DNA of 64,000 nucleotides from Thermoanaerobaculia bacterium. Its GTDB lineage: Bacteria; Acidobacteriota; Thermoanaerobaculia; Multivoradales; JAHZIX01. Made by a program: the position numbers and the translations under genes. Shown here piece by piece: positions 4,726 through 21,431 of this stretch (position 1 is the first letter of the stretch; the number at the start of each line of letters is the position of its first letter). The DNA is taken from contig JALXFE010000073.1 of assembly GCA_027069135.1 (NCBI GenBank), forward strand, positions 16,629 to 80,628, in the 5' to 3' direction. Under the pieces are notes generated by a model. That model did not search any database. It was not told the origin of the DNA and worked only from the letters and a program-made list of their open reading frames with translations.

Positions 4726-5159
4726 GAGCTTCCCTTTCTTTTCTTGGCTTCGTCCACGACTCTCCGTACGTTTTTGAGGCAGCATTTCCCCGTCGGGTTG
4801 CGCACCTCGCAGGCGCAGCTCTTTTCCAATACCTGGGCGCGGATGGACTCGAGAATCGAGCTCTCTCCCGTGGCGAGAACCTCCTCTTCGACTTCCGAGT
4901 AGAGATGGCGAAAGCAGTGGCAGACCAGCTCCGGCTCCCAGCGGACCTGCGCCGTCGAGAGCTTGAGCCCTCGGTCCCCGAAGTAGACGACGTCACACTC
5001 CGGGTTGGGGCACAGCCACGTCCCCTGTCGCGGCGGCACAGCTCCTCGGCTAAGAGCCGCGATGGTCAACCATTTGACGGCCTCACCCGTTTCGCCCGAC
5101 TCCGGGCAAGTGGGAGCCCGGGGCGCGACAGCCCCCAGGGCGCAGCAGTCCATGCTCAT
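4722..5159 (-). CDS. Cys-rich putative Fe-S/Zn metallochaperone, resembling the N-terminal domain of Archaeoglobus CopZ (BFD-like [2Fe-2S] family)
   Basis: Motifs MDCC, CPESG, WLCPNPECDVVYF, VCHCF and CACEVRNPTGKCC. Start at ATG 5159 overlaps the merR stop (ATGA). Confidence 0.8.
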   Translation of the reverse strand: MSMDCCALGAVAPRAPTCPESGETGEAVKWLTIAALSRGAVPPRQGTWLCPNPECDVVYFGDRGLKLSTAQVRWEPELVCHCFRHLYSEVEEEVLATGESSILESIRAQVLEKSCACEVRNPTGKCCLKNVRRVVDEAKKRKGSS

Positions 5160-5563
5160 GGTGTGTCCTCTTGAAGAAGCGCGAGGATCGGACATACCCC
5201 GAGGGAGCCCGTCGACTCGCAGCGGCTATGAAGCTCCTCCAACGCACCCCGGATCCGCCGAAGGTCAGCGATGCGTTCCCCGATATCGTCGATTTTCGTC
5301 GCGATCTGCCTCTTCACGTCCGGGCAAGCCGGCTCCGGCGCCTCTCGCAGCGCCAGGAGCTCGGCCACTTCGGCGAGGGAGAATCCCAGCTCCTTGGCCC
5401 GGCGGATGAACCTCAGACTCCGCACCGCATCAGCCGAGTACTGGCGGTAGCCGGAGGCCTTCCGTGGCGGTTCAGCAAGGAGACCCCGTCTCTCGTAATA
5501 GCGCACCGTCTCAACCCCGACGCCAACCTCTCGCGCTAGTTTTCCGATGGTCAGGTGCCTCAT
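5156..5563 (-). CDS. merR: MerR-family metal-responsive regulator, Hg(II)-type Cys pattern
   Basis: N-terminal LTIGKLAREVGVGVETVRYYERRGLL wHTH. From ATG 5563 the Cys residues are C80, C115 and C124 (spacing 35 and 9, as for C82/C117/C126 of Tn21/Tn501 MerR). Confidence 0.85.
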   Translation of the reverse strand: MRHLTIGKLAREVGVGVETVRYYERRGLLAEPPRKASGYRQYSADAVRSLRFIRRAKELGFSLAEVAELLALREAPEPACPDVKRQIATKIDDIGERIADLRRIRGALEELHSRCESTGSLGVCPILALLQEDTP

Positions 5564-5573
5564 GATGGTCCCC

Positions 5574-5605
5574 ATCATAAACCCCGTACCTAAGAACGGG
5601 GTCAA
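5574..5605 (-). promoter_or_regulatory. MerR-type promoter/operator
   Basis: -35 TTGACC (5605-5600), 20-bp spacer, -10 TATGAT (5579-5574). The dyad CCCCGTtC-TTAG-GTACGGGG resembles the mer operator CCGTAC-N4-GTACGG. Confidence 0.85.
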
Positions 5606-5971
5606 GGCTGCTTACCTGACGGAAGTCCAAGGTCTGCGACCCCTGCGACGAAGGCGCCAGTCAACCGAGGGGCTGCGAAGAATAGAGCGAAAGATGAGCC
5701 AGGCGAACTCTCCACCGTCGTTGTCGAGGAGGAGAAAGGTGCTGATACCGGCTCGGGCGTCGAGTTGGATGTAGTGACTGGCCAGGTCCGTTCTGTAGGG
5801 TCAGCAAAATTCCAGTTGAAGTAGGAGGCGTTAGCGGTTTTCTGAAGGTGCTGGAAACTTGGTGTTCGGTGCGCAAGCCTAGTGCCGCGAGGCCTAGAAG
5901 GAGTGCTGTTGGTGTTGGCGATGTGGGCGGTGAGCATGCGGGTGGGCTTCTTTTTCCGCCATAATGTGCCC

Positions 5972-7033
5972 ATGACGACCCAAGACCTCGACTCTCTGCG
6001 CCGCCAAATTCGGGAATTGGACGACCGATTGGTAGAGCTCGCGGCCCAGCGCCAGGACCTGGCTCGGCAAGTGGGGGAGGAGAAGCGGCGGCGGGGGCTG
6101 CCGACGGTGAATTTCGCTCAGGAGCGGGACGTCCTGGAGCGGGCGCGGCGGCGGGCCGAAGAGAGGCGATTGGATCCGAGCCTGGCGGAGGATCTTATGC
6201 TCCGCCTGATCCGGGCTTCGGTGACGGCGCAGGAGGAAGACAGCCTCCGCCATGCCGCCACCGGTGCCGGAGAACAGGCGGTGGTGGTCGGTGGTGCCGG
6301 TCGTATGGGGCGGTGGATCACCCGATTTCTTGAAGCTCAAGGTTTTTCAGTCGCGGTGCTCGATCCTCTGAGGGCGGGCGAGGTGGAGGCTGCCGAAGCC
6401 CTGCTGCCGACGGCACAGCTCGTTCTTTACGCCACACCGCCGGGCCAGACGGCACGGCTCTATCGTGAGCTATGCTCCGCGCCGCCGACGGGCGTCGTAG
6501 CCGACCTGGCCAGCATCAAGACCCCGCTCCTCGAGTCGATCCGAGAGTTGCAGCGGGCGGGGGGGCGAGTGGCGTCGTTTCATCCAATGTTCGGCCCGTC
6601 GACCCTGGTCCTGCGGGACGCCGATGTGCTGATTTGCGAGACCGGCGACCCTTCAGCGACAGCGGCGGTGGAGGCTCTTTTCGAGCCCACGGCGGCCCGC
6701 CGGGTGCATCTGCCGCTGATCGATCACGACCGCCTCATGGCGGACCTCCTGAGCCTCGCCCACGCCACCGCCATCGCGTTCTCGCTAGCACTACCGGACG
6801 CCAACCATCCGGTCCGTAGTACCACGTTCCAGGCCCTCGAGGGGCTGGCTTCGGCGGTCGTGCGGGAGAGCCCGGATCTCTACTACGAGATCCAGGCGGA
6901 CAATCCCCATTCCCTGGCGGCGGTGGAGCGATTGAGGGCGGCGGTGGAGCAGTTGGTGACGGTCGTACGGGCCCGCAGCGTGGACGACTTCCGGGCTTTG
7001 GTAGCAGAGGGCCGCCGCCGCACGGGCCATTAG
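5972..7033 (+). CDS. tyrA: Bifunctional chorismate mutase / prephenate dehydrogenase
   Basis: N-terminal AroQ-like LDSLRRQIRELDDRLVELAAQR..VGEEK; Rossmann VVGGAGRMG; DLASIK, SFHPMFGP, HDRLMA. Start taken at MTTQDL (5972). Confidence 0.9.
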   Translation: MTTQDLDSLRRQIRELDDRLVELAAQRQDLARQVGEEKRRRGLPTVNFAQERDVLERARRRAEERRLDPSLAEDLMLRLIRASVTAQEEDSLRHAATGAGEQAVVVGGAGRMGRWITRFLEAQGFSVAVLDPLRAGEVEAAEALLPTAQLVLYATPPGQTARLYRELCSAPPTGVVADLASIKTPLLESIRELQRAGGRVASFHPMFGPSTLVLRDADVLICETGDPSATAAVEALFEPTAARRVHLPLIDHDRLMADLLSLAHATAIAFSLALPDANHPVRSTTFQALEGLASAVVRESPDLYYEIQADNPHSLAAVERLRAAVEQLVTVVRARSVDDFRALVAEGRRRTGH

Positions 7034-7045
7034 GACGGTTCCCGA

Positions 7046-8131
7046 TCAACCGCCGAAGTGGTAGCCGCCCCGGGCCCGGACCTGGAATTCATCGCTCACC
7101 GTGCGCACCGCCACCCCGCGGTACCCTCCGCCCTCGACGGGCTGTTCACTGCGAAAGCTCAGGAGGTAGAAGCCGCTGTTCTGGCGGGAGATCCGGCGTA
7201 GAGGATCGAGGACGTCCTGGAATCTGAAGAGGTACTCGCCACCGGTCTCCCGAGCCAGGAAATCCAGGCTCTCCTGATGACCCCGCCGGGTCACCCCGAT
7301 GGTGTAGACGGCCACATTGGCGGCGTTGAACGTCTCGATGGCGGTGTCGAGGGCCTTTTCGGTCTTGATCGAGCCGTAGCCGGGCACATCGACTCCGAAG
7401 ACGATGAGGTTCTTTCGACCCGGAACCGCTTCGAGCTCCGCTGCCAGGGTGGTCAGGGCTTCGACGAAATCTGAAGGTGCCTCCCGATCTTCGTCCTGGA
7501 CGAAGGCGGCGAGGGTCACGCCGGGGCTGCGCGGACCGCTCCGGGAGGGCCACCGGGAGTCCGGCGCCTTACCCCGGGAAGCACTGTAAAGAGCCCGACC
7601 GAGGCGGCCCCGGTCTCGGGTGAAATCGTGATGAAGCCGAAGGCGGGTGTCGAAGCCGGCAACGGCTACATGGTCGCTGGGCAGGAGCTCTTCCATGAGC
7701 CATTGGTAGGCCAGCTTTCCCGCCCGGGGGAGGCGGAGATAGAGACGGTTGTCGCCCTGCGTGCCCACCGGCGGCCGGTAGAAGAGCAGCACGAAATACC
7801 GATCCTCCGGAACCTGAAAGGTCTGAGCCTCGAGGTCTGCTTCGACGGCGGAGGCCGGGGTCGCCCCGGCGGCTCCGAGATAGATTCGGTTGCTGTAGAA
7901 GGAGACACTCTCCACCGGCACAGTCCGCCCTTCGTCTTCGACGACGAAATCGTCCCGGTCCAGGCCGATGATGACGTTGCCCTCGCCATCCGTGACCAAG
8001 ACGTCGAGCAGGACCTCGCGAACTTCCAGCTCTTCTTGGAACGGGGCGGGCTCGGGATCCTGGGCCCAGGTCGAGAGCGTTGGGAGTGTGGAAGCTACGA
8101 GAAGCGCGACGGCAGTGGAGAACGGTCTCAT
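7046..8131 (-). CDS. Secreted VWA-domain protein of the Acidobacterial VWFA-related type
   Basis: Signal peptide; VLLDVLVTDGEGN..GLDRDDFVVEDEG; GRKNLIVF; LARETGG; FYLLSF; VRARGGY C-terminus. Start taken at 8131. Confidence 0.8.
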   Translation of the reverse strand: MRPFSTAVALLVASTLPTLSTWAQDPEPAPFQEELEVREVLLDVLVTDGEGNVIIGLDRDDFVVEDEGRTVPVESVSFYSNRIYLGAAGATPASAVEADLEAQTFQVPEDRYFVLLFYRPPVGTQGDNRLYLRLPRAGKLAYQWLMEELLPSDHVAVAGFDTRLRLHHDFTRDRGRLGRALYSASRGKAPDSRWPSRSGPRSPGVTLAAFVQDEDREAPSDFVEALTTLAAELEAVPGRKNLIVFGVDVPGYGSIKTEKALDTAIETFNAANVAVYTIGVTRRGHQESLDFLARETGGEYLFRFQDVLDPLRRISRQNSGFYLLSFRSEQPVEGGGYRGVAVRTVSDEFQVRARGGYHFGG

Positions 8132-9558: not shown

Positions 9559-10503
9559 TCAGGGAGCTGCCTCGACGAGGATTGAGGTTTCGGCGAAGGT
9601 GACCAGGCGTCCCCCGTCTCGGCGCCGAACCCGCAGCGTCAACTCCCCTACGGGGAAAGCTTCGATGGGAAGGCGGGCCTGGAACCGGGAGTCCCCGAGG
9701 GGAGTCAGTGCGCTTCCGCGCCAAAGCCTTCGGCCGACGGAATCCAGGACGTCGATCTCCGCGGGGCCTTCCGGGGGGGGGCCGTCGAAGGCGAAGGTGA
9801 GCTCCACTTCTGAGGTCCGCGCTTCCAATCGGAGCACCGAGGCTCCTTCATCGAAGGTTCCGGAGCTCGCCGCAATCACCCGAAGTCCGGATTCCGAGCC
9901 TGCCGGCAGGCTGATTCCGGGGCCCTCCAATCCTGCCGTGGCCGGACCTGTGTCGCCCACGGTTCCGGCGGTGGAGCCGAGATTCCACAACCAATAGCCC
10001 GCGGCCAAGATCGCCAGGAGGCTCGCCGCAATGGCACCGAGCTGCCAGCCCTGGGCCGAGCGGGACTGTGATCGGCGAAAGGGTGATCGGCGAAAGGGTG
10101 ATCGGCGAAAGGGTGATCGGCGAAAGGGCAGGGCTGCCGGAATCTCAGCGGCAGGGGTCTCGAAGCTCACGTCCATGTCTTCGTGTTGCCGATCTCGGCT
10201 GGCCTCGACGAGCTTAAGCTCCTCGGCACATCTCGAGCAGATTCTCAAATGGTCTTCAAGCAGAGTCCGTTCCGGTCCCATGGACACCTGGTGAAAGGCG
10301 TATCGGACGAGTTGGTCAGCGGTAGCGTGAGTATTGAAAGCCGCTGCGGCGAAGGAGGTGTCCCGATGCTCCTGTCGACACCCGGGGCAAGACTCCATGT
10401 GAGCCTCGAGAGCAGCGGATTCTTCCTGGCCGAGGGTACCGTTGAGATACCATGGGAGGAGTTCAGCGGCGGAGCCGCAGTCGATGGCTAGGTTCTTCAT
10501 CAC
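9559..10503 (-). CDS. Anti-sigma factor: two zf-HC2-like zinc fingers, TM helix, extracytoplasmic domain
   Basis: LLPWYLNGTL..EAHMESCPGC and LEDHLRICSRC (HxxxCxxC twice); TM LGAIAASLLAILAAGYWLW; lies directly downstream of the ECF sigma gene. Confidence 0.85.
   Translation of the reverse strand: MMKNLAIDCGSAAELLPWYLNGTLGQEESAALEAHMESCPGCRQEHRDTSFAAAAFNTHATADQLVRYAFHQVSMGPERTLLEDHLRICSRCAEELKLVEASRDRQHEDMDVSFETPAAEIPAALPFRRSPFRRSPFRRSPFRRSQSRSAQGWQLGAIAASLLAILAAGYWLWNLGSTAGTVGDTGPATAGLEGPGISLPAGSESGLRVIAASSGTFDEGASVLRLEARTSEVELTFAFDGPPPEGPAEIDVLDSVGRRLWRGSALTPLGDSRFQARLPIEAFPVGELTLRVRRRDGGRLVTFAETSILVEAAP
10068..10127. repeat. Perfect tandem repeat, 4 x 15 bp (GTGATCGGCGAAAGG), encoding (PFRRS)4 in the anti-sigma factor
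   Basis: Units at 10068, 10083, 10098 and 10113, read directly. Confidence 0.97.
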
Positions 10504-10533: not shown

Positions 10534-11103
10534 TTACACTCCTGCGCTTTCTTCGAGCAAATTATCACGCACCGCGACGGCCTTCTTGCGGCACCGGAGC
10601 ACCCGAACCCGGAGCGTGGCCTCCGATACCCCCAACTGCTGGCTCATCTCGCGGTAGCTATACCCTTCGAGCACCAGCTGCCATAACTTGTGGCAGTCTT
10701 TCGAGGTTTGGGACACGACTCGGAGCATCAGGTCTCGAAATTCGTTGCGCACACCCTGGCGCGCACCTTCCGCCAAGACACCGCGGTGGTCGAGGTCGTC
10801 AAGACCTTGCCATCGCCACCGAGACCGGCGACGGAGCCGATCGATGCAGGTGTGATTCACGACTCTCCAGAGGTAGGTCTTGAGGCTCGAGTCGCCCCGA
10901 AAGCTGCCCCGGCGGAGCAAGCGAGTGAGCTCCAGGCGAATTTCCTGGAGGATGTCCTCCCAATCCTCGGAGAGCCTTTGACGAAAACTCCAGGCCGCCT
11001 GGGAAATCCACGTATCGACTTCACGAATCGCTTCTCCATCGCCGACGAGGAAGAGCTGAACCAGGTCCGAGTCCCGGGAGGAAGTGGGGGGTATTTCCGT
11101 CAT
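10534..11103 (-). CDS. ECF RNA polymerase sigma factor
   Basis: Region 2: EDILQEI..FRGDSSLKTYLWRVVNHTCIDRLRR. Region 4: GYSYREMSQQLGVSEATLRVRVLR. Confidence 0.93.
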   Translation of the reverse strand: MTEIPPTSSRDSDLVQLFLVGDGEAIREVDTWISQAAWSFRQRLSEDWEDILQEIRLELTRLLRRGSFRGDSSLKTYLWRVVNHTCIDRLRRRSRWRWQGLDDLDHRGVLAEGARQGVRNEFRDLMLRVVSQTSKDCHKLWQLVLEGYSYREMSQQLGVSEATLRVRVLRCRKKAVAVRDNLLEESAGV

Positions 11104-11219: not shown

Positions 11220-14200
11220 TCAGGCGTCGGCGGGTTCTAAGGGTCCAGCCTCCGCGGAGCGCTCCGGAGTCTCCTGGGAGGGTTGAGCTTCCCCGTCTTG
11301 CTCCGGCTCGAGATCGTGCTCCCGGGCCCAGAGATCGAGTTTGGAGAAGACATAGGGGCAGATCGGAGAGAAAGCCTCTCGCAGGAGGCCCAAGACCTGC
11401 CCTAGGACCGCGGGGGAGGGAGTCTGCGGCATCTCGCCCTCCTCGGTCCCTTCGGCGCAGCGGCGTCCGTAGGTGCGCAGATCTTCGACCGCGGAGACCA
11501 TTTCCTTGGCGGCCTGGGAGAGACGCAGCTCGCGATAGGCGAGGGTGGTCGCCCGGCCCGAGGCCATCGCTTGCTCCAAGATCCAACGGTCCGCCGCCGA
11601 AGTGGGGGAGCTGGTGCCTCGTCGGGAGAGCCGATAGAGGCCGGCTACCTGAGCCGGAAGGCGGTGGAGGGTGCGCCGTGCCTGACGCAGGGCTCCCTCC
11701 GAGAAGGTCACGACTTCCGGCCGGTGGCTTCCCAGGCATAGGAGGCTGCCCAGGCGCAGAGCATCGGCTCCGAAGCGGCGTACCAAGGTCGCCGGCTCGA
11801 CGACGTTGCCCAGTTGCTTGCGCATGGGCCGCAAGGTCGAGCGATAGTGAAAGCGTTCCTCGTCGAGGGCGTCCGGGGGCGCACCTTCAAGCTCCACGAG
11901 ATCTCGGTCGACGATGTGGAGGGCGCCGTGGACGGCGATCTTCCGGAAGGCGGGCCTCCCGAAGAGCTTGAGGGAGATCAGCTGGGAGGGAACGATCCAC
12001 CGTAGCAGGAGGTCGGGGTTGACGAAGACCTCATCCACCGGTGTCGGAGCCGGGGCTTCCGGCCAGCCCATGGCGACCATCGACCAGGCGATGAGGGAGA
12101 ACCAGGTTGAGAAGACCTCCTCCGGGCGATCCGGAATCTCATGCCCCCACCACTGTTGGCGAGAGATGCACAGAGGTTCCAGCGCCTCGAGGTGTTGCTC
12201 GACCTTGTCGCGCCACCGTGAGTCCTCGAATTGGACCGCACCGGAGCGAATGGCGGTCGTGAGACTGCTCGCGAAAGGGCGCAGGCGGAGGAAGACCTGG
12301 TCCGAGACGAGGGGTAAGACCATGGATTCGCAGCGTCGGCAACGTCGAGCATCGAGGGACCAGCCACCCTCTACCGTCGTCGCCCGCGAATCGAGGGCCT
12401 CGAGGATTTGCCGACGTGCCGTTTGGCGATCCACCGCTCGGCGCGCGGCCGAGCTCTCGAGGACCAAGAGCACCCGACCGCGATCATCGAAAACCGGGGG
12501 GAATTCCTCGAGGCCATGCTGGCGGGCGAGGCGTTCGTCGGAACCCCGATAGGAGGGCACCAGGAAGGAGGCGTCCGAGTCCAGGGCGTCGACGGCCACG
12601 ATGGGCAGGGGGTCGCCGGTCAGCGGGTGCAGGGCCGTCCCGCCGACGGCTTCCGCATGGGGGCCGTCGGAGCGGACGGTGACGGCGACGGCACCTACCA
12701 GAAGCTCCGGGAAAAAGGTGAAAGTATCGATGCCGGGTTGGCGGGCGTCCCGCCGCTCGAAGCGAAGCCGGTATCCACGCTCGATGCGGATCCGCGTCGG
12801 TTTGATCTCCGAGGCCACCAGGACCGTTCGACAGCGGGGGCAATGGTGGCCGAGGCGTTGTTCCCGGTGCAGGAGCCCGGCGTCTTTGAGGGCGTAGTAG
12901 AGGAGGCGCACCGCTCGGCTTCCGGCCCCACCCATGGGGTCGAGCCACCGCCGCGGGTCGAAGTCCACCCCGGCCTCGTGGAGTTGTTCCCGGACCGCCG
13001 CGTCGTTGTCCCGATGGAGATCCTCGCAGGCCTCGGTGAACTCCCCACGACCGGTCTCCTCCCGCTCGTAGGGCAGGGAACGCTCGACGGCCAGCTGTAG
13101 GGTGAGTCCGCCATGGTCCGAACCCAGGACCCGGCGGCAAGGGCCGCCTTCGGAAAGCTCCAGGGACCGGGCTCGGATGTCGGCCAAGAGCGCTGAGAAG
13201 AAACTGTCGAGGCTAGGCCGTGACGCCGTCGATAGGGGGCCGGCGGCGACGGAGGTCCGGGCGCCATCGAAACGGCCGGGTTGTTTCCAGCGCAGCCGAA
13301 TCTCGGCCTCGTCGAGGGCCGGAGTGAAGATCGGTGCAGGCCGCGGTGGGGCGTCGGGCCGTGGCGGCAGGTGCCATCCGCTCGAGATCAGGTGATCGAT
13401 GATCCGACGGCCCCGATGGCCCAGTTGGGGATGTAGCTCGCAGGCGGCGATATCCGCCAGCTCATCCGCCGCCGCCGTCGTGGTGGTCACCAGATTTCGG
13501 GCGTGGCGAAGAATCCGCAGCGTGTCCGGGTAGAGGCGCTGGGCCGCGATCTGAACGTCCTGCGCCAGATAGCCCTGCCACTCGTCCGCACAATTGGTGA
13601 TGCCCATGCGGTTGCAGACGTAATCCGGAACGAAGGCGATGCCCCGTTCCTTCAAGCGCTCCGCATCTCTGGGCTCGCCGAGGATGTTGTTGGCCGCTCC
13701 GCAGACCAAACGAGCCTTGAGCGTCGGGATTGTCGTGACGTTGATCTGGTCGCCGATGGCACAGGGTGCCAGGATGTCCACCTCGAGGGCGAGGATGTCT
13801 TTAGGTGGCACGACGCGGATTTGAGGTCTTTCTTCCGAGAGCTGGGCCAAGACCTCTTCGTTGACGTCACAAGTCCAGACCTGGGCCCCGGCGTCGTCGA
13901 GAAGGCGGATCAGGACTCCGCCGACGTTGCCGGCGCCCTGCACCGCGACCTTCACGCCCTGGAGCCGCTCACTTCCCGTCAGGAATCGCCACGCCGCCTG
14001 CATGGCCCAGAAGACCCCGCGGGCCGTCGCCGGGGAGGGGTTGCCGCTTCCCCCTACCAGAGCGGAGATACAGGTTTGAAAGCGGTTCTGGGAGAGCATG
14101 GCATCCATGTCGGAGGTCTTGGTGCCGATGTCTTCGGCGGTGTAGTAGACGCCGTTTAAGCTCGCCACGAAGCGGGCGTAGGCCTTGAAGACCTCCAGCC

Positions 14201-14681
14201 GCCGGGGGGCGCCGGGAGTTAGGTATTGCGGATGGTTCATCTGCGGCGTTCTGGGGAGGATGCCCTTGCCTCCGCCCCACCACAAGCCCGCCAGGGCGTT
14301 CTTGCGGGTCATGCCCCGGGAGAGTCTCAAGCCGTCCTCGAGGATCGAGGCCACGTTGTCGTAGGTCCGGTACCGCAGCCCCCCCTGCGAAAGCCCCCGC
14401 CGCGTATCGTGGACAAAAGCGAAGAAAAGGGTGGGTATGTCGGTCTCGGTGCCGATGAAGATCGCCTCGTGACGGGCAAAATCCTGGGAGAGCTCCACGA
14501 AGGCCCGGAGGGGGGCGAGAAGCTGGGGGTGGGAGAGGGTCAGATGGCCGTTTTCATAGACGATGAAGGCCCGCTCCACCCCTTCCTGACGGAAGCTCTC
14601 CAGGAGCTCCGTGAGGGGCATCCCCCGGACCTCACGGGCGAGGTCCCGACGGCGAAGATCGGCGTTGCGCTGGTTCGGCAT
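11220..14681 (-). CDS. Fusion of a Glu/Leu/Phe/Val dehydrogenase (LeuDH-like) domain with a degenerate valyl-tRNA synthetase-like domain
   Basis: N-terminal part: MTRKNA, GGGKG, TAEDIGT, GSGNPSPATARGV, QGAGNVG, APCAIG, CGAANN, PDYVCN. C-terminal part: GSDHGGLTLQLAVER, CISRQQWWGHEIP, FSTWFS, LGNVVEP..RFGADALR, ADRWIL. HIGH and KMSKS are not intact. Confidence 0.9.
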   Translation of the reverse strand: MPNQRNADLRRRDLAREVRGMPLTELLESFRQEGVERAFIVYENGHLTLSHPQLLAPLRAFVELSQDFARHEAIFIGTETDIPTLFFAFVHDTRRGLSQGGLRYRTYDNVASILEDGLRLSRGMTRKNALAGLWWGGGKGILPRTPQMNHPQYLTPGAPRRLEVFKAYARFVASLNGVYYTAEDIGTKTSDMDAMLSQNRFQTCISALVGGSGNPSPATARGVFWAMQAAWRFLTGSERLQGVKVAVQGAGNVGGVLIRLLDDAGAQVWTCDVNEEVLAQLSEERPQIRVVPPKDILALEVDILAPCAIGDQINVTTIPTLKARLVCGAANNILGEPRDAERLKERGIAFVPDYVCNRMGITNCADEWQGYLAQDVQIAAQRLYPDTLRILRHARNLVTTTTAAADELADIAACELHPQLGHRGRRIIDHLISSGWHLPPRPDAPPRPAPIFTPALDEAEIRLRWKQPGRFDGARTSVAAGPLSTASRPSLDSFFSALLADIRARSLELSEGGPCRRVLGSDHGGLTLQLAVERSLPYEREETGRGEFTEACEDLHRDNDAAVREQLHEAGVDFDPRRWLDPMGGAGSRAVRLLYYALKDAGLLHREQRLGHHCPRCRTVLVASEIKPTRIRIERGYRLRFERRDARQPGIDTFTFFPELLVGAVAVTVRSDGPHAEAVGGTALHPLTGDPLPIVAVDALDSDASFLVPSYRGSDERLARQHGLEEFPPVFDDRGRVLLVLESSAARRAVDRQTARRQILEALDSRATTVEGGWSLDARRCRRCESMVLPLVSDQVFLRLRPFASSLTTAIRSGAVQFEDSRWRDKVEQHLEALEPLCISRQQWWGHEIPDRPEEVFSTWFSLIAWSMVAMGWPEAPAPTPVDEVFVNPDLLLRWIVPSQLISLKLFGRPAFRKIAVHGALHIVDRDLVELEGAPPDALDEERFHYRSTLRPMRKQLGNVVEPATLVRRFGADALRLGSLLCLGSHRPEVVTFSEGALRQARRTLHRLPAQVAGLYRLSRRGTSSPTSAADRWILEQAMASGRATTLAYRELRLSQAAKEMVSAVEDLRTYGRRCAEGTEEGEMPQTPSPAVLGQVLGLLREAFSPICPYVFSKLDLWAREHDLEPEQDGEAQPSQETPERSAEAGPLEPADA

Positions 14682-14817: not shown

Positions 14818-14846
14818 ATTCTATCTTCACCACTCGATCTTGCCAA
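14818..14846 (-). promoter_or_regulatory. Putative sigma-70 promoter for the LeuDH-ValRS-like gene
   Basis: TTGGCA (14846-14841), 17-bp spacer, TAGAAT (14823-14818). Confidence 0.5.
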
Positions 14847-15220: not shown

Positions 15221-15407
15221 GAAGGAAATCCTATCGCAGTCACAAAATCCCGGCCACAAAGCTCCCCTATCCGCCCCGAGCAGCTCCTCCTAGGATAGGC
15301 CTTCGCCCTTGCGGGTCTGGGCGCCCAAGTATGCGGCGACGGTAGAGGTTATACTCTTAAAAAATACCTCTGAGCCAGCATTCCCAAGAAAAGGGAGGGT
15401 CTTCTTC

Positions 15408-17471
15408 ATGCGTTTCAGGTCACTGCTTTCTCAATTCCCCGCCAAGGCGTTCTTGACCACCTTGGCGACTGTAGCGATCCTCCTCCCGAATCCGGCTCAG
15501 GCGAGCGGTGAAGTCTGGGAAGCCTTGCAAGGAGAGGCCTCGGCACAGCCGGCGGATCCCTGGATCGAAGCGAGCGCTTACCGGGCTTTCCGCCTGGATT
15601 GGGGGCCCTTGGAAGGTGTGCTGGCGCGGGCGCCGGAGGAGGGGCGGACCGCTGCCGACGGCGGCGATGTCGTCTTGCGGCTGCCGCTGCCGGACGGACG
15701 CTTCGAGAGCTTCTCGATCGAGAATTCACCCATTATGGAAGAGGGGTTGGCGCGGAAATTTCCTCAGTTGAGGACCTTTCGAGGCTTGGGGCTCGATGAT
15801 CCGAGCGCTCTCGTCCGTTTCGACGTCACCCCCCATGGGTTTCACGCCATGATCCTGCGGGCCGGGGAGACGGTGTTCATCGATCCTTGGGAGCAGGGGG
15901 ATCGACAACGCTACATCAGCTACTTCAAGAGCGCGGCTGTGCCCCGTCCCGGGAATACCTTTACCTGCGGATTTGAAGCCGGGGAGCTCGGGGAGCCTTT
16001 GGGCTCTCGGGATCGGGGAGAGTCCCCTCGCGTGCCGTCGGGCACGAATCTGCGCACCTATCGCCTGGCGCTTGCCGCCACCGGCGAGTACACCGCTTTC
16101 CACGGCGGCACCGTTGGCGATGGAATGGCTGCCATCGTGACGGCGATGAATCGAGTCAACGGAATCTATGAGCGGGACGTCGCGATTCGCATGACCTTAA
16201 TCGCCAACAACGACCTGGTGGTCTATACAAACGGTGGCACGGACCCTTATTCAAACAACAGCGGCGGTGCCATGCTGGGGCAGAATCAGACCAATCTGGA
16301 CAATGTCATCGGTTCCGCCAACTACGATATCGGCCATGTATTTAGCACCGGCGGCGGTGGTGTCGCCAACTTGGGGGTTCCCTGCCGCGCCGGGGCCAAG
16401 GCCCGGGGCGTCACCGGCCTAAGCTCTCCGGTAGGAGACCCCTTCTACGTCGATTTCGTGGCCCACGAGATGGGGCATCAATGGGGTGGAACCCATACCT
16501 TCAACGGAACGACGGGCAGTTGCTCGGGGGGTAACCGCACGGGTTCTACGGCCTACGAGCCCGGCAGCGGGACGACCATCATGGCCTACGCGGGGATTTG
16601 CGGTAGCCAGGATATCCAGAACAATAGCGATGACGACTTTCACATCGCGAGCATCGATCAGATCGTGGCCTACTCGACCGCCGGTTCCGGGAACGGCTGC
16701 CCGGTGACGACAGCCACGGGAAATACGATTCCGACGGTCGATGCCGGTGCCAACTTCACGGTCCCCGCCAACACTCCCTTCGAGCTCTGCGGCACCGCCT
16801 CGGATCCGGATGCTGGCGCCCTCCTGACCTACGATTGGGAAGAGTTCGACCTTGGCCCCGCCGGTGCTCCCAATTCACCGGTAGGCGACGCGCCGATCTT
16901 CCGTTCCTTCGTCTCGACCACGAATCCTTGTCGGACCTTTCCCCGATCCCAGGACCTGCTCAACAACACCCAAACGCTCGGCGAGCTGCTGCCCGCCGTC
17001 TCGCGGACCATGACCTTCCGGCTGACCGCGCGGGATAACCAGCCCGGCGGTGGTGGGGTGGACCATGACAGCATGTCCCTTTCCGTCGCGGGCGGCGCCG
17101 GCCCGTTCTTGGTCACCGCCCCCAACACTGCCCTGAGTTGGCCCGGCGCCAGCTCCCAGACCGTCAGCTGGGATACCGCCGGGACGGCGGCAGCGCCGGT
17201 GTCCTGCGCCATGGTCGACATCCTCCTGTCATCGGACGGCGGCCTGACTTTCCCGCAGACCCTGCTTGCTGGCACCGCCAACGATGGGACTGAGATAGTG
17301 ACGGTTCCCAACGGACCGATCGCTGCGGCTCGGATCCGAGTCCAATGCACCGGCAATGTCTTTTTCGACGTCTCCGACGCGAATTTCGAGATCACTTTCA
17401 GCGGAGATCCCATTTTTTCCGATGGCTTCGAATCCGGGGATACCAGTGCCTGGTCTGCGACCTCCCCGTGA
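15408..17471 (+). CDS. Secreted reprolysin-like (M12B) zinc metallopeptidase with a C-terminal IFSDGFESGD motif
   Basis: Signal peptide; prodomain Cys (FTCG); LRTYRLALAATGEY; zinc site AHEMGHQWGGTH; EPGSGTTIMAYAGIC Met-turn. Start taken at 15408. Confidence 0.92.
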   Translation: MRFRSLLSQFPAKAFLTTLATVAILLPNPAQASGEVWEALQGEASAQPADPWIEASAYRAFRLDWGPLEGVLARAPEEGRTAADGGDVVLRLPLPDGRFESFSIENSPIMEEGLARKFPQLRTFRGLGLDDPSALVRFDVTPHGFHAMILRAGETVFIDPWEQGDRQRYISYFKSAAVPRPGNTFTCGFEAGELGEPLGSRDRGESPRVPSGTNLRTYRLALAATGEYTAFHGGTVGDGMAAIVTAMNRVNGIYERDVAIRMTLIANNDLVVYTNGGTDPYSNNSGGAMLGQNQTNLDNVIGSANYDIGHVFSTGGGGVANLGVPCRAGAKARGVTGLSSPVGDPFYVDFVAHEMGHQWGGTHTFNGTTGSCSGGNRTGSTAYEPGSGTTIMAYAGICGSQDIQNNSDDDFHIASIDQIVAYSTAGSGNGCPVTTATGNTIPTVDAGANFTVPANTPFELCGTASDPDAGALLTYDWEEFDLGPAGAPNSPVGDAPIFRSFVSTTNPCRTFPRSQDLLNNTQTLGELLPAVSRTMTFRLTARDNQPGGGGVDHDSMSLSVAGGAGPFLVTAPNTALSWPGASSQTVSWDTAGTAAAPVSCAMVDILLSSDGGLTFPQTLLAGTANDGTEIVTVPNGPIAAARIRVQCTGNVFFDVSDANFEITFSGDPIFSDGFESGDTSAWSATSP

Positions 17472-17551
17472 GGTCTCCGGCGATCGAGTCCCCGGCATGA
17501 CCAGATGGTAGACTCCGCCGAGTTGTCAAAATATCGCTACGGGGGAACGAG

Positions 17552-19252
17552 ATGCTGAGCTTTTTGGAGCGCCTCGCGGAGGCAATTTCTGCAATTTTTT
17601 CGACCTATCTGGAGCCCATCGCCTCGTTTCTCGAGGGCTACGTCTGGAATTGGCCGTCCTCGGCGCCGCTCCTGGCAGTCGTCCTTCTGGGCACCGGGCT
17701 CTTCGTCACACTACGGCTGGCTTTCGTCCAGGTGCGGGGCTTCAAGCATGCCCTCGATATCACCCGGGGCAAATATGACAACCCGGAAGACGCTGGGGAC
17801 CTCAAGCATTATCAGGCCCTGACCACGGCCCTCTCCGCCACCGTCGGCATCGGAAATATTGCCGGCGTGGCCCTGGCCATCCGCATGGGCGGCCCCGGCG
17901 CTCTCTTCTGGATGTGGGTGACAGCGTTCTTCGGAATGGCTCTGAAATTCGCCGAGTGCACCCTGGCCCTGCGTTTTCGCAAGGTGCATGCGGACGGCTC
18001 CGTCTCCGGTGGTCCCATGTACTACATCGAGCTCGGCCTGGGGAAGAGCTGGAAGTGGATGGCCATGACCTTCGCGGGCCTGGCGGCGATCTGCTCCTTC
18101 GGCAGCGGCAATATGAACCAGAGCAACACCATGGCGGTGTTGATGGAAGGGGATTTCAACGTGCCGCGAGTGGCGACGTCGTTGATCTTCGCGGCGGTGG
18201 TGGCCATGGTGATCATCGGCGGCATCAAACGCATCGGCCGGGTAACGTCGTTTCTGGCTCCGTCGATGGCCGCCCTCTATGTCCTCGGCGCCCTGATCAT
18301 CCTCATGATCAATTATCGGGAGATCCCCTCCGGCGTGGCCCTGATCTTCAGTCAAGCCTTCGCTCCGGAACCCTTGGTCGGCGGCGGCGTCGCCTCCTTT
18401 CTCATGACCCTCATGTGGGGGGTCCGACGAGGATTGTTCAGCAACGAGGCCGGCCAGGGCTCCGCCCCCATCGCCCATGCCACCGCCAAGACGACGGAGC
18501 CGGTACGGGAAGGTCTGGTGGCCTCTCTGGGTCCTTTCATCGATACCCTGGTGATCTGTACGATGACCGGATTGGTGATTGTCACCAGCGGCGCCTACAA
18601 AGACAAAGTGGAGCAGAATCTCGCGTCGGTCACAGCCCTCGAAGTGGTCATGGCCGACAGTGGGGCCTCGGATGGGGACATCATAGGTTTGAGGGAGAGT
18701 CGCACCGCTGGCACCGTGACGGTTCGCGACGGAGCCCTCGAGGGTGCACACCTGGTTCACATGGACGCTCTGGTGGCGAATGCCCGCTTGACGGACAGTG
18801 ACGGCAACGCCTGGAACGGCGTCCTCAACGTGGCGGCGAATGGCAGTATCTCGGCGGGGGAGAACGCACCGGTGGTCACCGGGGAAGCCCTTCATACCGG
18901 GGCGGAGCTGACCTCCTGGGCCTTCAAGAAGGGTCTGGGCAGCACCGGAGGCTTCATCGTGACCCTGGCGGTGCTGTTATTTGCCGTGTCCACGGCCATT
19001 TCCTGGTCCTATTACGGCGACCGGGCGACGGAGTATTTGCTCGGCAGCCGGTTCATCCCGATCTACCGCTGGGTATTCGTCTTCTTCTTCTTTCTCGGAG
19101 GGATCCTGCCCCTACGGGCGGTGTGGATTATGGGCGACGTAGCCCTGGGGTTGATGTCTTTTCCCAACCTGATCGCGTTGGTCTTGCTTTCCGGCGCGGT
19201 GGTGGGCATGAGCAAGGACTACTTCTCTCGGGAGCAAAAGCCCTATAAGTAG
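17552..19252 (+). CDS. Alanine/glycine:cation symporter (AGCS/AlsT family)
   Basis: ALSATVGIGNIAGVALAI, GGPGALFWMW, GGPMYYI, GVRRGLFSNEAGQGSAPIAHA, FIDTLVICTMT, SWSYYG. Confidence 0.95.
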   Translation: MLSFLERLAEAISAIFSTYLEPIASFLEGYVWNWPSSAPLLAVVLLGTGLFVTLRLAFVQVRGFKHALDITRGKYDNPEDAGDLKHYQALTTALSATVGIGNIAGVALAIRMGGPGALFWMWVTAFFGMALKFAECTLALRFRKVHADGSVSGGPMYYIELGLGKSWKWMAMTFAGLAAICSFGSGNMNQSNTMAVLMEGDFNVPRVATSLIFAAVVAMVIIGGIKRIGRVTSFLAPSMAALYVLGALIILMINYREIPSGVALIFSQAFAPEPLVGGGVASFLMTLMWGVRRGLFSNEAGQGSAPIAHATAKTTEPVREGLVASLGPFIDTLVICTMTGLVIVTSGAYKDKVEQNLASVTALEVVMADSGASDGDIIGLRESRTAGTVTVRDGALEGAHLVHMDALVANARLTDSDGNAWNGVLNVAANGSISAGENAPVVTGEALHTGAELTSWAFKKGLGSTGGFIVTLAVLLFAVSTAISWSYYGDRATEYLLGSRFIPIYRWVFVFFFFLGGILPLRAVWIMGDVALGLMSFPNLIALVLLSGAVVGMSKDYFSREQKPYK

Positions 19253-20136
19253 TCCCGGTGCAAGCGGTAGCCGAGGCATTTGTAGACCAGGCGGGCGGCG
19301 GTGAAGTCGCTGGCGTGAAGGCCGGCCTGGGGTGAGAGCTCGACGACGTCCATGGCCACTACCTCTTTGCCCACGAAGAGCTCCCGCAGGAGCCGCATCG
19401 TGGGCCACCATGTCCCTCCGCCGGGTTCCGGTGTTCCGGTTGCCGGGAGGAGGGACGGATCGAAGAAGTCCAGATCGAAAGTGAGATAAATCTTCCTCGG
19501 AAGGCGCTCCAGGGCGTCGCGCCAGATCTTGGCGGTGAGGCCTTCGAGCTCATGTCCCCAGATCACCGGCAGCCGACGCCGGTGGATCAGCTCCCGCTCT
19601 TCCCGTGAGATCGACCGAACACCCACCGCCAGAGTCTGGAGCCCGAGGTCTTCAACGATCCGGCGCATGACACAGGCGTGGCTGTTCGGAGATCTAAGGT
19701 ATGCGTCCCGAAGATCCCCGTGAGCGTCGAATTGCACGACGCCCAGGTCTTGGTGAAGGCCGGCGGCGGCCCGGACCGTTCCGAGGGTTAGACTGTGCTC
19801 ACCCCCCAACGTGACTAGAAATTTTCCGGCTTGGAGGTGGGGGAGGGCCGAGCTTTCGATCTCAGCGATGGCGGCCGCCATATCCTCGGACCGGGGGCGA
19901 AGGTAGGGCAAGGTATGGATCCCTTGCCGGTTGGGCTCCAGCCCCAACTCCTCGTCGTACCACTCGACCTGGTGAGAGGCTCGTAGGATTGCCGCGGGTC
20001 CTTCGGCGGTGCCTTTCCCATAGCTCGTGGTGCGCTCGAAGGGGATTGGAAGAATCACGCTCCCGCAGCGAGCGTAGTCTCGGTGCTCCTCTTCCAAGAA
20101 AGTGAGGTGGGTCGGCTCTGGAGCTTTGCCCGTCAT
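19243..20136 (-). CDS. speB: Agmatinase
   Basis: LGGEHSLT, QFDAHGDLRD, SHAC, TFDLDFFDPS..PATGTPEPGG, DVVEL; adjacent to an arginine decarboxylase. Confidence 0.93.
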   Translation of the reverse strand: MTGKAPEPTHLTFLEEEHRDYARCGSVILPIPFERTTSYGKGTAEGPAAILRASHQVEWYDEELGLEPNRQGIHTLPYLRPRSEDMAAAIAEIESSALPHLQAGKFLVTLGGEHSLTLGTVRAAAGLHQDLGVVQFDAHGDLRDAYLRSPNSHACVMRRIVEDLGLQTLAVGVRSISREERELIHRRRLPVIWGHELEGLTAKIWRDALERLPRKIYLTFDLDFFDPSLLPATGTPEPGGGTWWPTMRLLRELFVGKEVVAMDVVELSPQAGLHASDFTAARLVYKCLGYRLHRDYL

Positions 20137-20140
20137 AGGC

Positions 20141-20698
20141 TCACGGGAGGAGAACGGACGCGGCGATGACGGTGGTCCAGAGGCCGTCCTCGTTGCCTCT
20201 GGCGTGTTGGGTCAGGGCAGAGGTGCGAACGATCTGACCGGAGATCTTCCACAGCTCCCGTTTTTCGTCGTAGGAGCGGTCCGGATCGAAATCGACCCCG
20301 AGGGTGGTGGCAAGCATCGTCGCGGCGAGGTCTTCGGCATAGTCGCTGGCGGTACGAACGTTCTCACCGAAGGCGTGGTGCTCCGAGAGATAGCCGTATT
20401 GCTCCGGATCTCTGGGCTGGGCCACTCCCACGGAAGCCACCAGGTTGCGATAGGGCTCGTTGGTGGCGGCCTCGGCGACGACGCAGGGAACCACGGCCCC
20501 GGCGGGAAGGAGTTTTACTCCCTTGGACCTGGGGATGACCTTACAATGGGGGGGGAAGATGCTCGAGACGCGGATGATGTTGATGGCGGCGATGTCCGCG
20601 CTGCGCAGCGCCATCTCGAAGCTGGTGAGCTTCTCCCGATGGACGCCGACGCCCTTGGTCAAGAACATCTTGCTCGGCACGAATAGAAGACTCGTCAT
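20141..20698 (-). CDS. pdaD: Pyruvoyl-dependent arginine decarboxylase
   Basis: LTSFEMALRSADIAAINIIRVSSIFPP (Ser-Ser self-cleavage site), YGYLSEHH, AEDLAATMLATTLG, WTTVIAA. Confidence 0.92.
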   Translation of the reverse strand: MTSLLFVPSKMFLTKGVGVHREKLTSFEMALRSADIAAINIIRVSSIFPPHCKVIPRSKGVKLLPAGAVVPCVVAEAATNEPYRNLVASVGVAQPRDPEQYGYLSEHHAFGENVRTASDYAEDLAATMLATTLGVDFDPDRSYDEKRELWKISGQIVRTSALTQHARGNEDGLWTTVIAASVLLP

Positions 20699-20813
20699 GT
20701 GGATTCCTCCGATGGGCAGGACGAAAGCCCAGCGGTTCTAGCAGCCGCCGCGGAGCGATGTCAACGGAAACTTAGGAAATGGGCCTCCCACGAAGAGGCT
20801 GGGGAAACGGAAG

Positions 20814-21431
20814 ATGAGCATTGAAATGAATCGGCAACAGGCCTGGGAGACGGTTTGTGAATTCGTCAAGGATCCGGGCCTTCGGCGTCATATGGTGTCG
20901 GTCGAGGCGGCCATGCGAGCCTATGCGGAAGAATTGAAGGGGGATCCGGATCGGTGGGGGCTGGCGGGTCTCCTCCACGACTACGATTGGGAGATCCATC
21001 CGACCCTCGAGGGTCATCCCCGAGAGGGGGCCTCCCTTCTACGCGAGCGCGGCTGTCCGGAGGACGTCGTCCAGGCGATCTTGTCTCACAACACGGCGGG
21101 TACCGGTGTTGAGCGCAAGAGTGCGATGGATTTCGCTTTGCTGGCCTGTGACGAGATCACCGGGCTGATCATCGCTGCCACGTTGGTGCGGCCCCATAAG
21201 GACATCCGCAAGATTAAGGTCAAATCTATCAAGCGGAATTGGAAGGACCGCCTGTTCACGGCGGCGGTGAGTCGGGAGGAGGTCGCCGAAGCCGTCGAGG
21301 ATTTGAGCCGGGAACACTTCGACGGCAAATTGGAACTCTGGCAGCATACCGGCAGAGTTCTGGCCGCCATGCAGGGGATTGCCGAGGATTTGGGTCTCGA
21401 CGGCCGTCTGGCTTCCCCGGCTTCTTCATAG
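20814..21431 (+). CDS. HD-superfamily hydrolase (HDIG-type)
   Basis: LRRHMVSVEAAMR, GLLHDYDWE, AILSH, ACDEITGLI..LVRP. Confidence 0.85.
   Translation: MSIEMNRQQAWETVCEFVKDPGLRRHMVSVEAAMRAYAEELKGDPDRWGLAGLLHDYDWEIHPTLEGHPREGASLLRERGCPEDVVQAILSHNTAGTGVERKSAMDFALLACDEITGLIIAATLVRPHKDIRKIKVKSIKRNWKDRLFTAAVSREEVAEAVEDLSREHFDGKLELWQHTGRVLAAMQGIAEDLGLDGRLASPASS

Follow-up and report, generated by a model that had tools for sequence, protein, structure and literature searches.

A putative amino-acid dehydrogenase joined to a valyl-tRNA synthetase-like body without HIGH and KMSKS motifs

Why would an amino-acid dehydrogenase carry, in the same chain, the body of a valyl-tRNA synthetase (ValRS) that has lost its catalytic motifs? 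The question is raised by one gene in a 64,000-nucleotide stretch, hereafter the window, of the genome of a Thermoanaerobaculia bacterium (assembly GCA_027069135.1, contig JALXFE010000073.1, positions 16,629 to 80,628). A first-pass annotation, made from the DNA letters, had described the product as a leucine-dehydrogenase (LeuDH)-like enzyme fused to a dead ValRS, an architecture for which it knew no precedent. Our analysis suggests that the protein belongs to a conserved, uncharacterised family, in which a probably NAD-dependent amino-acid dehydrogenase is joined to a non-catalytic paralogue of bacterial ValRS.

Architecture of the fusion protein

The gene is a single uninterrupted open reading frame (ORF) on the minus strand (11220..14681, protein P0001), with an ATG start and 1153 codons plus stop, exactly as the first-pass annotation had read it. 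All features of the gene given below lie on this strand, in window coordinates.

The N-terminal part is an ELFV amino-acid dehydrogenase module (aa 1-437, 13371..14681), delimited from Pfam, NCBIfam, Protein Data Bank (PDB) and Foldseek matches and from stand-alone relatives. Pfam places ELFV_dehydrog_N (aa 89-198) and ELFV_dehydrog above their gathering scores (44.0 against 25.3 and 71.5 against 23.4, respectively), with the two domains together spanning aa 89-373. The PDB sequence search matches LeuDH 6acf to aa 87-410 with 39% identity (E 1.7e-71). As for NCBIfam, no equivalog reaches its cut-off in this half, and the best model is Trp_DH_ScyB (Trp/Leu-type), with 215 bits against 600. The module is followed by a Pro-rich linker, LPPRPDAPPRPAP (aa 438-450), in a linker region of aa 438-451 (13329..13370). 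The stand-alone dehydrogenase relatives stop exactly here, terminating at the position of W436.

Next comes a ValRS-like body (aa 452-1125, 11307..13328), supported by Pfam, NCBIfam, alignment and Foldseek. It has the class Ia fold, that is, a Rossmann body with zinc knuckles and an inserted CP1 domain, an SC-fold and a helix bundle, all collinear with ValRS. Pfam reports tRNA-synt_1 above its gathering score (aa 495-850, E 1e-28) and a weak match to Anticodon_1 (aa 1031-1113, E 0.0096). In the PDB search the Thermus thermophilus ValRS 1gax is matched with E 3.5e-45, and the helix bundle also matches IleRS. The first-pass description of a Pro-rich linker followed by a ValRS-collinear body is therefore borne out by alignment, by Pfam and by the 1gax matches. 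The valS equivalog models score the fusion far below their cut-offs (PRK05729, 197 bits against 704; TIGR00422, 163 against 612).

An AlphaFold2 model built from an alignment of 105 family members is confident along the whole chain (mean pLDDT 91.4, pTM 0.89), with only residues 1130-1153 disordered. The top Foldseek match is again 1gax (E 3.5e-33, 730 columns, 25% identity, TM(target) 0.64), followed by IleRS structures and then by LeuDH and PheDH structures with TM values of 0.80-0.89. In this model the whole chain is predicted to pack the dehydrogenase and the ValRS-like body into one compact, rigid particle.

Family distribution and selection

A word-indexed search through 5.8 billion proteins found the same two-part fusion in at least 120 protein clusters drawn from NCBI, JGI, ENA and Logan assemblies, with full-length homologues at 46-77% identity. 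When each GTDB species was represented by one genome, the scan gave 163 relatives, and about 46 of the best 80 are full fusions. These approximately 46 genome assemblies span at least 8 phylum-level groups. The hosts include Acidobacteriota, Sericytochromatia/Blackallbacteria, Planctomycetota, KSB1-type lineages, Calditrichota, Cloacimonadota and Wallbacteria, mostly uncultured phyla, and no cultured host was found among the family members on large contigs. Within the order of the present genome the distribution is patchy, with the fusion present in 5 of 41 genomes.

The databases name these proteins “class I tRNA ligase family protein” or, at JGI, [quoted passage not shown]. We found no published description of the architecture in full-text literature searches and synthetase-paralogue reviews. 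The claim of an undescribed protein thus holds for the literature, while the sequences themselves were already deposited, in the clusters counted above. Their automatic annotation as tRNA ligase or valyl-tRNA synthetase can give genomes an apparent extra ValRS.

An exhaustive HMMER search of 1.84 billion representatives returned no stand-alone version of the ValRS-like protein and no other fusion partner. Besides the fusions it gave only 5'-truncated fragments, short matches without a start Met or beginning inside the dehydrogenase. The family is well separated in score, with members above 350 bits and real ValRS below 165.

All parts of the fusion are under purifying selection. The dN/dS values (Nei-Gojobori, 12 pairs) are 0.02-0.10 for the dehydrogenase and 0.05-0.28 for the ValRS-like half, where the first-pass annotation had asked for such a check, and every subdomain stays below 0.4. 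The least constrained part is the helix bundle, with omega up to 0.31. In phylogenetic trees the ValRS-like halves are monophyletic (support 100, stem of 2.15 substitutions/site) and fall outside both canonical and “type-2” bacterial ValRS, a placement for which the long branch is a caveat. They appear to be ancient.

These results bear on the simplest explanation of all, a chimeric assembly or a recent fusion drifting towards a pseudogene. The motif losses alone could suggest decay, but nothing else was found in its favour. Recurrence in at least 120 clusters and about 46 independent genome assemblies from at least 8 phylum-level groups led us to reject a chimera, and the dN/dS of the ValRS-like half, well below 1, to reject a decaying pseudogene. 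Both halves are monophyletic and the AlphaFold2 model is confident, and we regard an artefact or decay as practically negligible. The objections that the first-pass annotation had foreseen are not borne out by the sequence data, which contain no homologue with intact HIGH or KMSKS and no sign of a chimera, and the ValRS-like half is conserved in relatives.

The domain content varies in a defined manner. CP1, exactly residues 626-775, is absent in 26 of the 120 retrieved clusters, leaving proteins of about 1000 aa in which a hairpin joins the two zinc knuckles; a model of this form has a pLDDT of 85.4 and a pTM of 0.79. About half of the family has a C-terminal junction domain (60-100 aa), which this protein lacks. 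The coiled coil is absent in the whole family and the helix bundle is retained in every member. Since some members lack CP1 and some lack the C-terminal domain, the conserved core of the body is the Rossmann body plus the helix bundle; together with the dehydrogenase, these make up the constant core of the protein. A more reduced member, P0138 (901 aa), has an intact dehydrogenase, no CP1, and ASGGDA in place of GSDHGG, with loss of the residue equivalent to Asp81 of the T. thermophilus enzyme.

Active sites of the two halves

The LeuDH-type motifs quoted by the first-pass annotation are all found where it had placed them: MTRKNA (124-129), GGGKG (136-140), TAEDIGT (181-187), GNPSPATARGV (213-223) and GAGNVG (249-254). 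Counted over the 105 aligned members, as are all conservation figures below, K127, K139, D184, N331 and N332 are present in 105 and D272 in 101, and the G249xG251xxG254 pattern is present. The module thus resembles LeuDH and PheDH (6ACF, 1LEH, 1C1D) in its fold, the Lys pair, the Asp, the Asn-Asn, the GxGxxG with acidic residue and GGSGNPSP. Judged by these residues, the dehydrogenase looks active. An acidic residue after the GxGxxG strand indicates NAD over NADP, and its presence here points to NAD as the cofactor.

The substrate is a different matter. The side-chain pocket of LeuDH is formed by L40, A113, V291 and V294 (B. sphaericus / Geobacillus numbering), which in the 6acf alignment correspond to Q99, A182, I361 and C364; we count two of the four (Q99 and C364) as different. 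Both are invariant, Q99 in the fusion clade only, and R94 and R95 flank the pocket. Because of the Q99 and C364 replacements, “leucine dehydrogenase” is a family resemblance and not an assignment. The first-pass naming of a LeuDH-like enzyme therefore stands as to the ELFV fold and the intact catalytic residues, but not as to the substrate pocket.

The module belongs to a distinct LeuDH/PheDH-related subfamily with the motifs HDTRRGL[AS]QGG and MTRKNALAGLWWGGGKG. It differs from LeuDH and PheDH in these motifs, in the pocket, in an N-terminal extension of about 60 aa that is common to its stand-alone relatives, and in the roughly 700 further residues of the fusion. Stand-alone members of the subfamily, of about 440 aa, occur in Myxococcota, Ignavibacteriota, Aminicenantes, Calditrichota and Gammaproteobacteria, where they often adjoin M13/M3 peptidases.

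In the tree, all fusion dehydrogenases and three true stand-alone proteins (L047, L048, L051) form one clade, with support 100 and a stem of 1.07 substitutions/site. There are 35 positions fixed in the dehydrogenases of this clade and different in the stand-alone proteins. Many of these changes are polar to hydrophobic (E to A111, Q to L97, Q to I333, Q to W368, K to V243), as expected if the surface concerned is now buried at an interface. A further 103 positions, including all the catalytic ones, are common to the fusion clade and the stand-alone relatives.

For the ValRS-like body, motif positions were taken from alignments with the ValRS of the same genome and with 1gax. The HIGH-equivalent segment is AAGPLSTASRPSLD (aa 479-492, 13206..13247), with a family consensus of AA[AT]P[IV]S[AT]AxxPxL. 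A His is found at either HIGH position in none of the 105 members; the first position is held mainly by R (57) or S (23) and the second by L (102). The KMSKS-equivalent segment is PMRKQLGNVVEP (aa 952-963, 11793..11828), where KMSKS is likewise absent in all 105 members. The site reads PMRKQ here (952-956) and P94/M103/R96/x/x in the family, within the consensus RRPMRxxLGNVVEP. It is preceded by an insert of about 24-29 aa (923-951, 11829..11915), a family-specific beta-hairpin with a conserved DEERF, seen in the alignment and in the AlphaFold2 model. Both sites thus carry new conserved motifs, the second extending over DEERF..R..RRPMRxxLGNVVEP.

The CP1 editing-domain homologue (aa 626-775, 12357..12806) lies between the zinc knuckles CPRC (614-617) and CRRC (781-784), both of which are retained. 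Editing in ValRS relies on the Thr and Arg of TTRPET, on GTG, on Lys270/Thr272 and on Asp276/Asp279 (T. thermophilus numbering). Here TTRPET reads TFFPEL (655-660) and the GTG loop is deleted. Only Asp279 is retained, as D715, which is Asp in 72 of the 91 members having CP1. The protein stops about 150 aa short of the ValRS length: a disordered acidic/Pro tail (aa 1126-1153, 11223..11306), recognised from the alignment and the model, replaces the junction domain and coiled coil of ValRS.

The first-pass annotation had proposed the loss of HIGH and KMSKS, the insert of about 25 aa, the TFFPEL replacement and the missing coiled coil, and it was right in each of these. Because HIGH and KMSKS are absent, the body is predicted to be unable to form an aminoacyl-adenylate by the class I mechanism, and the editing site is, by its residues, dismantled. 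What remains is a synthetase fold without catalytic motifs, kept by purifying selection and covalently tied to an enzyme in all members.

The retained features are concentrated elsewhere in the old synthetic site. GSDHGG (aa 520-525, 13107..13124) is the counterpart of GTDHAG of ValRS, and its D522 corresponds to Asp81 (acidic in 97 of 105; Asp in 71, Glu in 26). The class Ia active-site motif LCISRQQWWG (aa 837-846, 12144..12173) is kept, including ISRQ, according to the alignment. The segment STWFS ... NPDLLLRW (aa 858-895, 11997..12110) supplies W860 and W895 for Trp456 and Trp495, each kept in 104 of 105, and D890 for Asp490, with an acidic residue in 93 of 105. We take Asp81, Trp456, Trp495 and Asp490 of 1gax to be residues of the amino-acid/adenosine pocket. 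The best-conserved stretches of the whole ValRS-like half are these active-site segments, and not CP1 or the bundle.

In summary of the comparison with T. thermophilus ValRS (1GAX), the body shares its fold, the domain order from the N-terminal helix to the helix bundle, the GTDHAG-like, WCISRQxWWG and GADALR motifs, the CPRC/CxxC knuckles and the Asp81, Trp456 and Trp495 equivalents. It differs in lacking HIGH, KMSKS, the editing residues, the coiled coil and, in this protein, the junction domain. It also differs in its pre-KMSKS insert, in scores far below the valS cut-offs, in forming a clade of its own and in always standing behind a dehydrogenase.

The old active site has also acquired three near-invariant arginines, R894, R951 and R954. 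Together with the strong conservation of the replacement motifs, they could argue for a cleft with a new catalytic or substrate-holding role, binding for instance a 2-oxo acid, an aminoacyl-adenylate or an aminoacyl-tRNA for the dehydrogenase, so that the two halves would form one reaction path. The long stem of the fusion-clade dehydrogenases (1.07 substitutions/site) suggests a functional change on fusion, and the invariance of Q99 in this clade only is in line with it. However, the counterpart of K127 binds the free carboxylate in LeuDH and PheDH, and K127 is invariant here. The 103 positions shared with stand-alone relatives, catalytic set included, argue for the same chemistry on a free amino acid, and we are not aware of any ELFV dehydrogenase that uses an amino acid in esterified or adenylated form. 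We consider a new role of this kind very unlikely.

Possible roles and the link to ValRS genes

Our preferred reading, held tentatively and at somewhat less than an even chance, is that the body is a non-catalytic sensor or regulator; through the amino-acid half of the old site it would couple the dehydrogenase to valine or tRNA-Val status. This half comprises the alpha-amino-binding Asp/Glu, the two pocket Trp, ISRQ and the ribose-binding acidic residue. Since it is kept, the expected ligand of the body would be valine or a closely similar compound, with the aminoacyl-adenosine end of tRNA-Val as a further possibility. The rigid interface would transmit the state of the body and so control the timing of the interconversion of amino acid and 2-oxo acid by the dehydrogenase. 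Amino-acid catabolism or synthesis would in this manner be tuned to the needs of ValRS, following the same logic as the HisZ-HisG pair and as GCN2 with its HisRS-like domain.

HisZ is a HisRS paralogue without aminoacylation activity that serves as regulatory subunit of HisG (ATP phosphoribosyltransferase), an enzyme in the pathway of its cognate amino acid, and is thought to sense through its old amino-acid site. The HisRS-like domain of GCN2 is a dead synthetase-like domain that switches a kinase by binding uncharged tRNA. Dead synthetase paralogues that regulate metabolism are rare; these two, both derived from the class II HisRS, are the best known, and we know of no described pseudo-ValRS. 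Like HisZ (discussed in PMC9437257), the present body is a bacterial synthetase paralogue kept by selection and physically tied to an enzyme of amino-acid metabolism. HisZ, however, is a class II separate subunit of a biosynthetic transferase, whereas here we have a class I fold in covalent fusion with a dehydrogenase, for which we infer regulation. With GCN2 it has in common a catalytically dead synthetase-like domain in the same chain as an enzyme. GCN2 differs in being eukaryotic, class II and joined to a kinase, and in the fusion several tRNA-contacting parts of ValRS are missing or dispensable. What is new here is a full-size class I pseudo-synthetase module with a dehydrogenase as its partner.

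If the body does sense valine or tRNA-Val, it would connect branched-chain amino-acid turnover with tRNA charging in bacteria directly, at the level of the protein. The family would also be a natural experiment on which synthetase parts are needed for ligand recognition once catalysis is lost, because CP1 and the C-terminal domain are each retained in some members and absent from others.

Several observations weigh against the sensor reading. No ValRS gene lies near the fusion in this genome, in its nearest relatives or at any of the Sericytochromatia loci. The Asp81 equivalent is not strictly invariant, and P0138 lacks GSDHGG altogether. The dehydrogenase pocket differs from that of LeuDH at Q99 and C364, so valine as its substrate is a guess. 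The new conserved arginines R894, R951 and R954 could indicate a different, anionic ligand. Finally, the helix bundle, always kept and slightly basic, would fit tRNA binding equally well.

This last point leads to a sensor of the GCN2 kind, in which the body would bind charged or uncharged tRNA-Val through the helix bundle (aa 995-1121, 11319..11699; from Pfam, NCBIfam, PDB and the AlphaFold2 model) and the remains of the acceptor-end pocket, and would switch the dehydrogenase. No member lacks the bundle, not even the minimal forms of about 1000 aa. The net charge is +2.6 for the SC-fold/KMSKS region and +2.9 for the bundle, compared with -2 and -5 in the genome's own ValRS. Moreover, D890 (ribose) and D522 (alpha-amino) are kept, so an aminoacyl-A76 end could dock, and ValRS genes are frequent neighbours. 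On the contrary, three tRNA-contacting parts of ValRS have been lost to different extents: the coiled coil everywhere, CP1 in 26 clusters and the junction domain in about half of the family, this protein included. The bundle is also the least constrained part, with the omega of up to 0.31 noted above. A tRNA sensor is the version of the idea closest to the first-pass annotation, according to which the pseudo-synthetase module could bind tRNA or a branched-chain amino acid and control or localise the dehydrogenase. We regard it as unlikely.

A narrower proposal is that the aminoacyl-adenosine end of charged tRNA-Val, or a released aminoacyl-adenylate, docks in the D522/W860/W895/D890 pocket, either to report charging to the dehydrogenase or to present the activated amino acid for oxidative removal. 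The reporting version, if true, would be a bacterial class I counterpart of GCN2. The presenting version would introduce a novel quality control that works without hydrolysis, or a tRNA-linked amino-acid chemistry, in either case connected with ValRS. We hold this proposal to be quite improbable.

The preferred reading, a valine or tRNA-Val sensor, is also favoured by the position of real ValRS genes, which are non-randomly near the fusion gene. Among the 34 informative loci, those having enough flank, 19 (a little over half) have a ValRS gene within 10 kb. Three kinds are found: a divergent bacterial “type-2” ValRS directly downstream, an archaeal-type ValRS (L032, L029) and a canonical one upstream (L037). 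The type-2 gene follows the fusion at L007, L010, L012-L016, L024, L031, L033, L034, L039, L041, L043, L045, L049 and L051 (at L013, for example, 18219-20912). In many cases this gene and the fusion gene abut or share 4 nt.

The type-2 ValRS is characterised by PPPNATGTLH[LT]GHA, PGTDHAAIATE and GTSRPETKLGD, with AHSxVDF for HDPND and KMSKSKPETCVDP for KMSKSKGN. It scores above the valS cut-offs, and it is the sole valS found in four genomes (metagenome-assembled genomes), with four others also carrying a canonical copy elsewhere. The fusion is repeatedly placed in a putative operon with the working ValRS. Two stand-alone dehydrogenases of the fusion clade lie 61 and 162 nt before a ValRS gene (L047, L051), directly preceding it, so the link between dehydrogenase and ValRS is independent of the dead body.

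We rejected the adjacency as the leftover of a recent tandem duplication, since the ValRS-like clade lies outside canonical and type-2 ValRS, and archaeal-type and canonical valS genes are also found adjacent. A single locus (L093, on the 12.2 Mb sequence OZ375331.1) has instead a type-2 IleRS gene (4788-7997, plus strand; 1069 aa with a DUF5915 tail; 684 bits against an ileS cut-off of 621) whose end lies 3 nt upstream of the fusion gene. No other examined locus has an adjacent ileS, and an IleRS/LeuRS adjacency as a general rule was rejected.

Such gene pairs are what would be expected if the body were a docking module or scaffold that places the dehydrogenase on ValRS (or IleRS) or on the translation machinery, with no ligand sensing. 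The synthetase would receive valine formed by reductive amination of 2-oxoisovalerate, or an excess of valine would be removed locally. Besides the loci where valS directly adjoins the fusion gene or shares 4 nt with it (L043, L045) or abuts it (L033, L034, L049), this agrees with the four genomes in which the adjacent type-2 valS is the only one found. The ValRS-like halves and the adjacent valS genes fall into the same groups in their trees, and the dehydrogenase-only members directly before valS and the ileS gene described above fit as well. However, 15 of the 34 informative loci, this one included, have no nearby synthetase, and the best conservation, in the active-site segments of the dead body, is left unexplained. 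To our knowledge ValRS is a monomer with no partner of this kind. This genome also carries two IlvE-type transaminase genes and therefore needs no dehydrogenase for valine synthesis. We judge docking distinctly unlikely.

At two of the loci (L032, 7340-9838; L043, 7198-9801; both on the minus strand) a further ValRS paralogue is divergent from the fusion. It scores above the valS cut-off, with 740 and 698 bits, and has an intact HIGH (LHIGHA), with RMSTAR or RMSTSR for KMSKS and GLG for GTG.

Apart from ValRS, no neighbour of the fusion gene is conserved across phyla. Synteny is only of the lineage type and involves a histidine kinase, a CAP-domain protein, NifU, an M20 peptidase and an SDR.

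In the present genome, the canonical valS was sought at the suggestion of the first-pass annotation and found on another contig (1058 bits, HIGH and KMSKS intact). The 10 kb on either side of the fusion gene contain no synthetase gene. At a distance of 12 kb (26832-28832, plus strand) lies a gene for a MetRS that has a tRNA_bind domain at its C-terminus, with no evident connection. The dehydrogenase as sole route to valine was rejected, given the two IlvE-type genes. Further ELFV dehydrogenase genes lie outside the window (C224:16053-16484 and C73:8139-8723, with one open frame of about 353 aa, the size of LeuDH), so the fusion is not the sole ELFV-type enzyme of this genome.

Upstream of the fusion gene, a promoter-like TTGGCA-17-TAGAAT (14818..14846) is found about 137 nt before the ATG. 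It is a consensus match only, and such matching gave 2 sites where 0.4 were expected. As for RNA leaders or riboswitches around the gene, Rfam gave one sub-threshold match only, within the ORF.

Lastly, the fusion gene is flanked upstream by a divergent pair (15309-19252, plus strand), a secreted-looking reprolysin-like (M12B) metallopeptidase of 720 aa and a Na:alanine symporter family transporter. Downstream are a bactofilin gene and an ECF sigma/anti-sigma pair. The ECF sigma gene is at 10534-11103, and the zf-HC2 anti-sigma factor gene downstream of it (9559-10503, minus strand) holds a four-fold tandem repeat of the peptide SPFRR.

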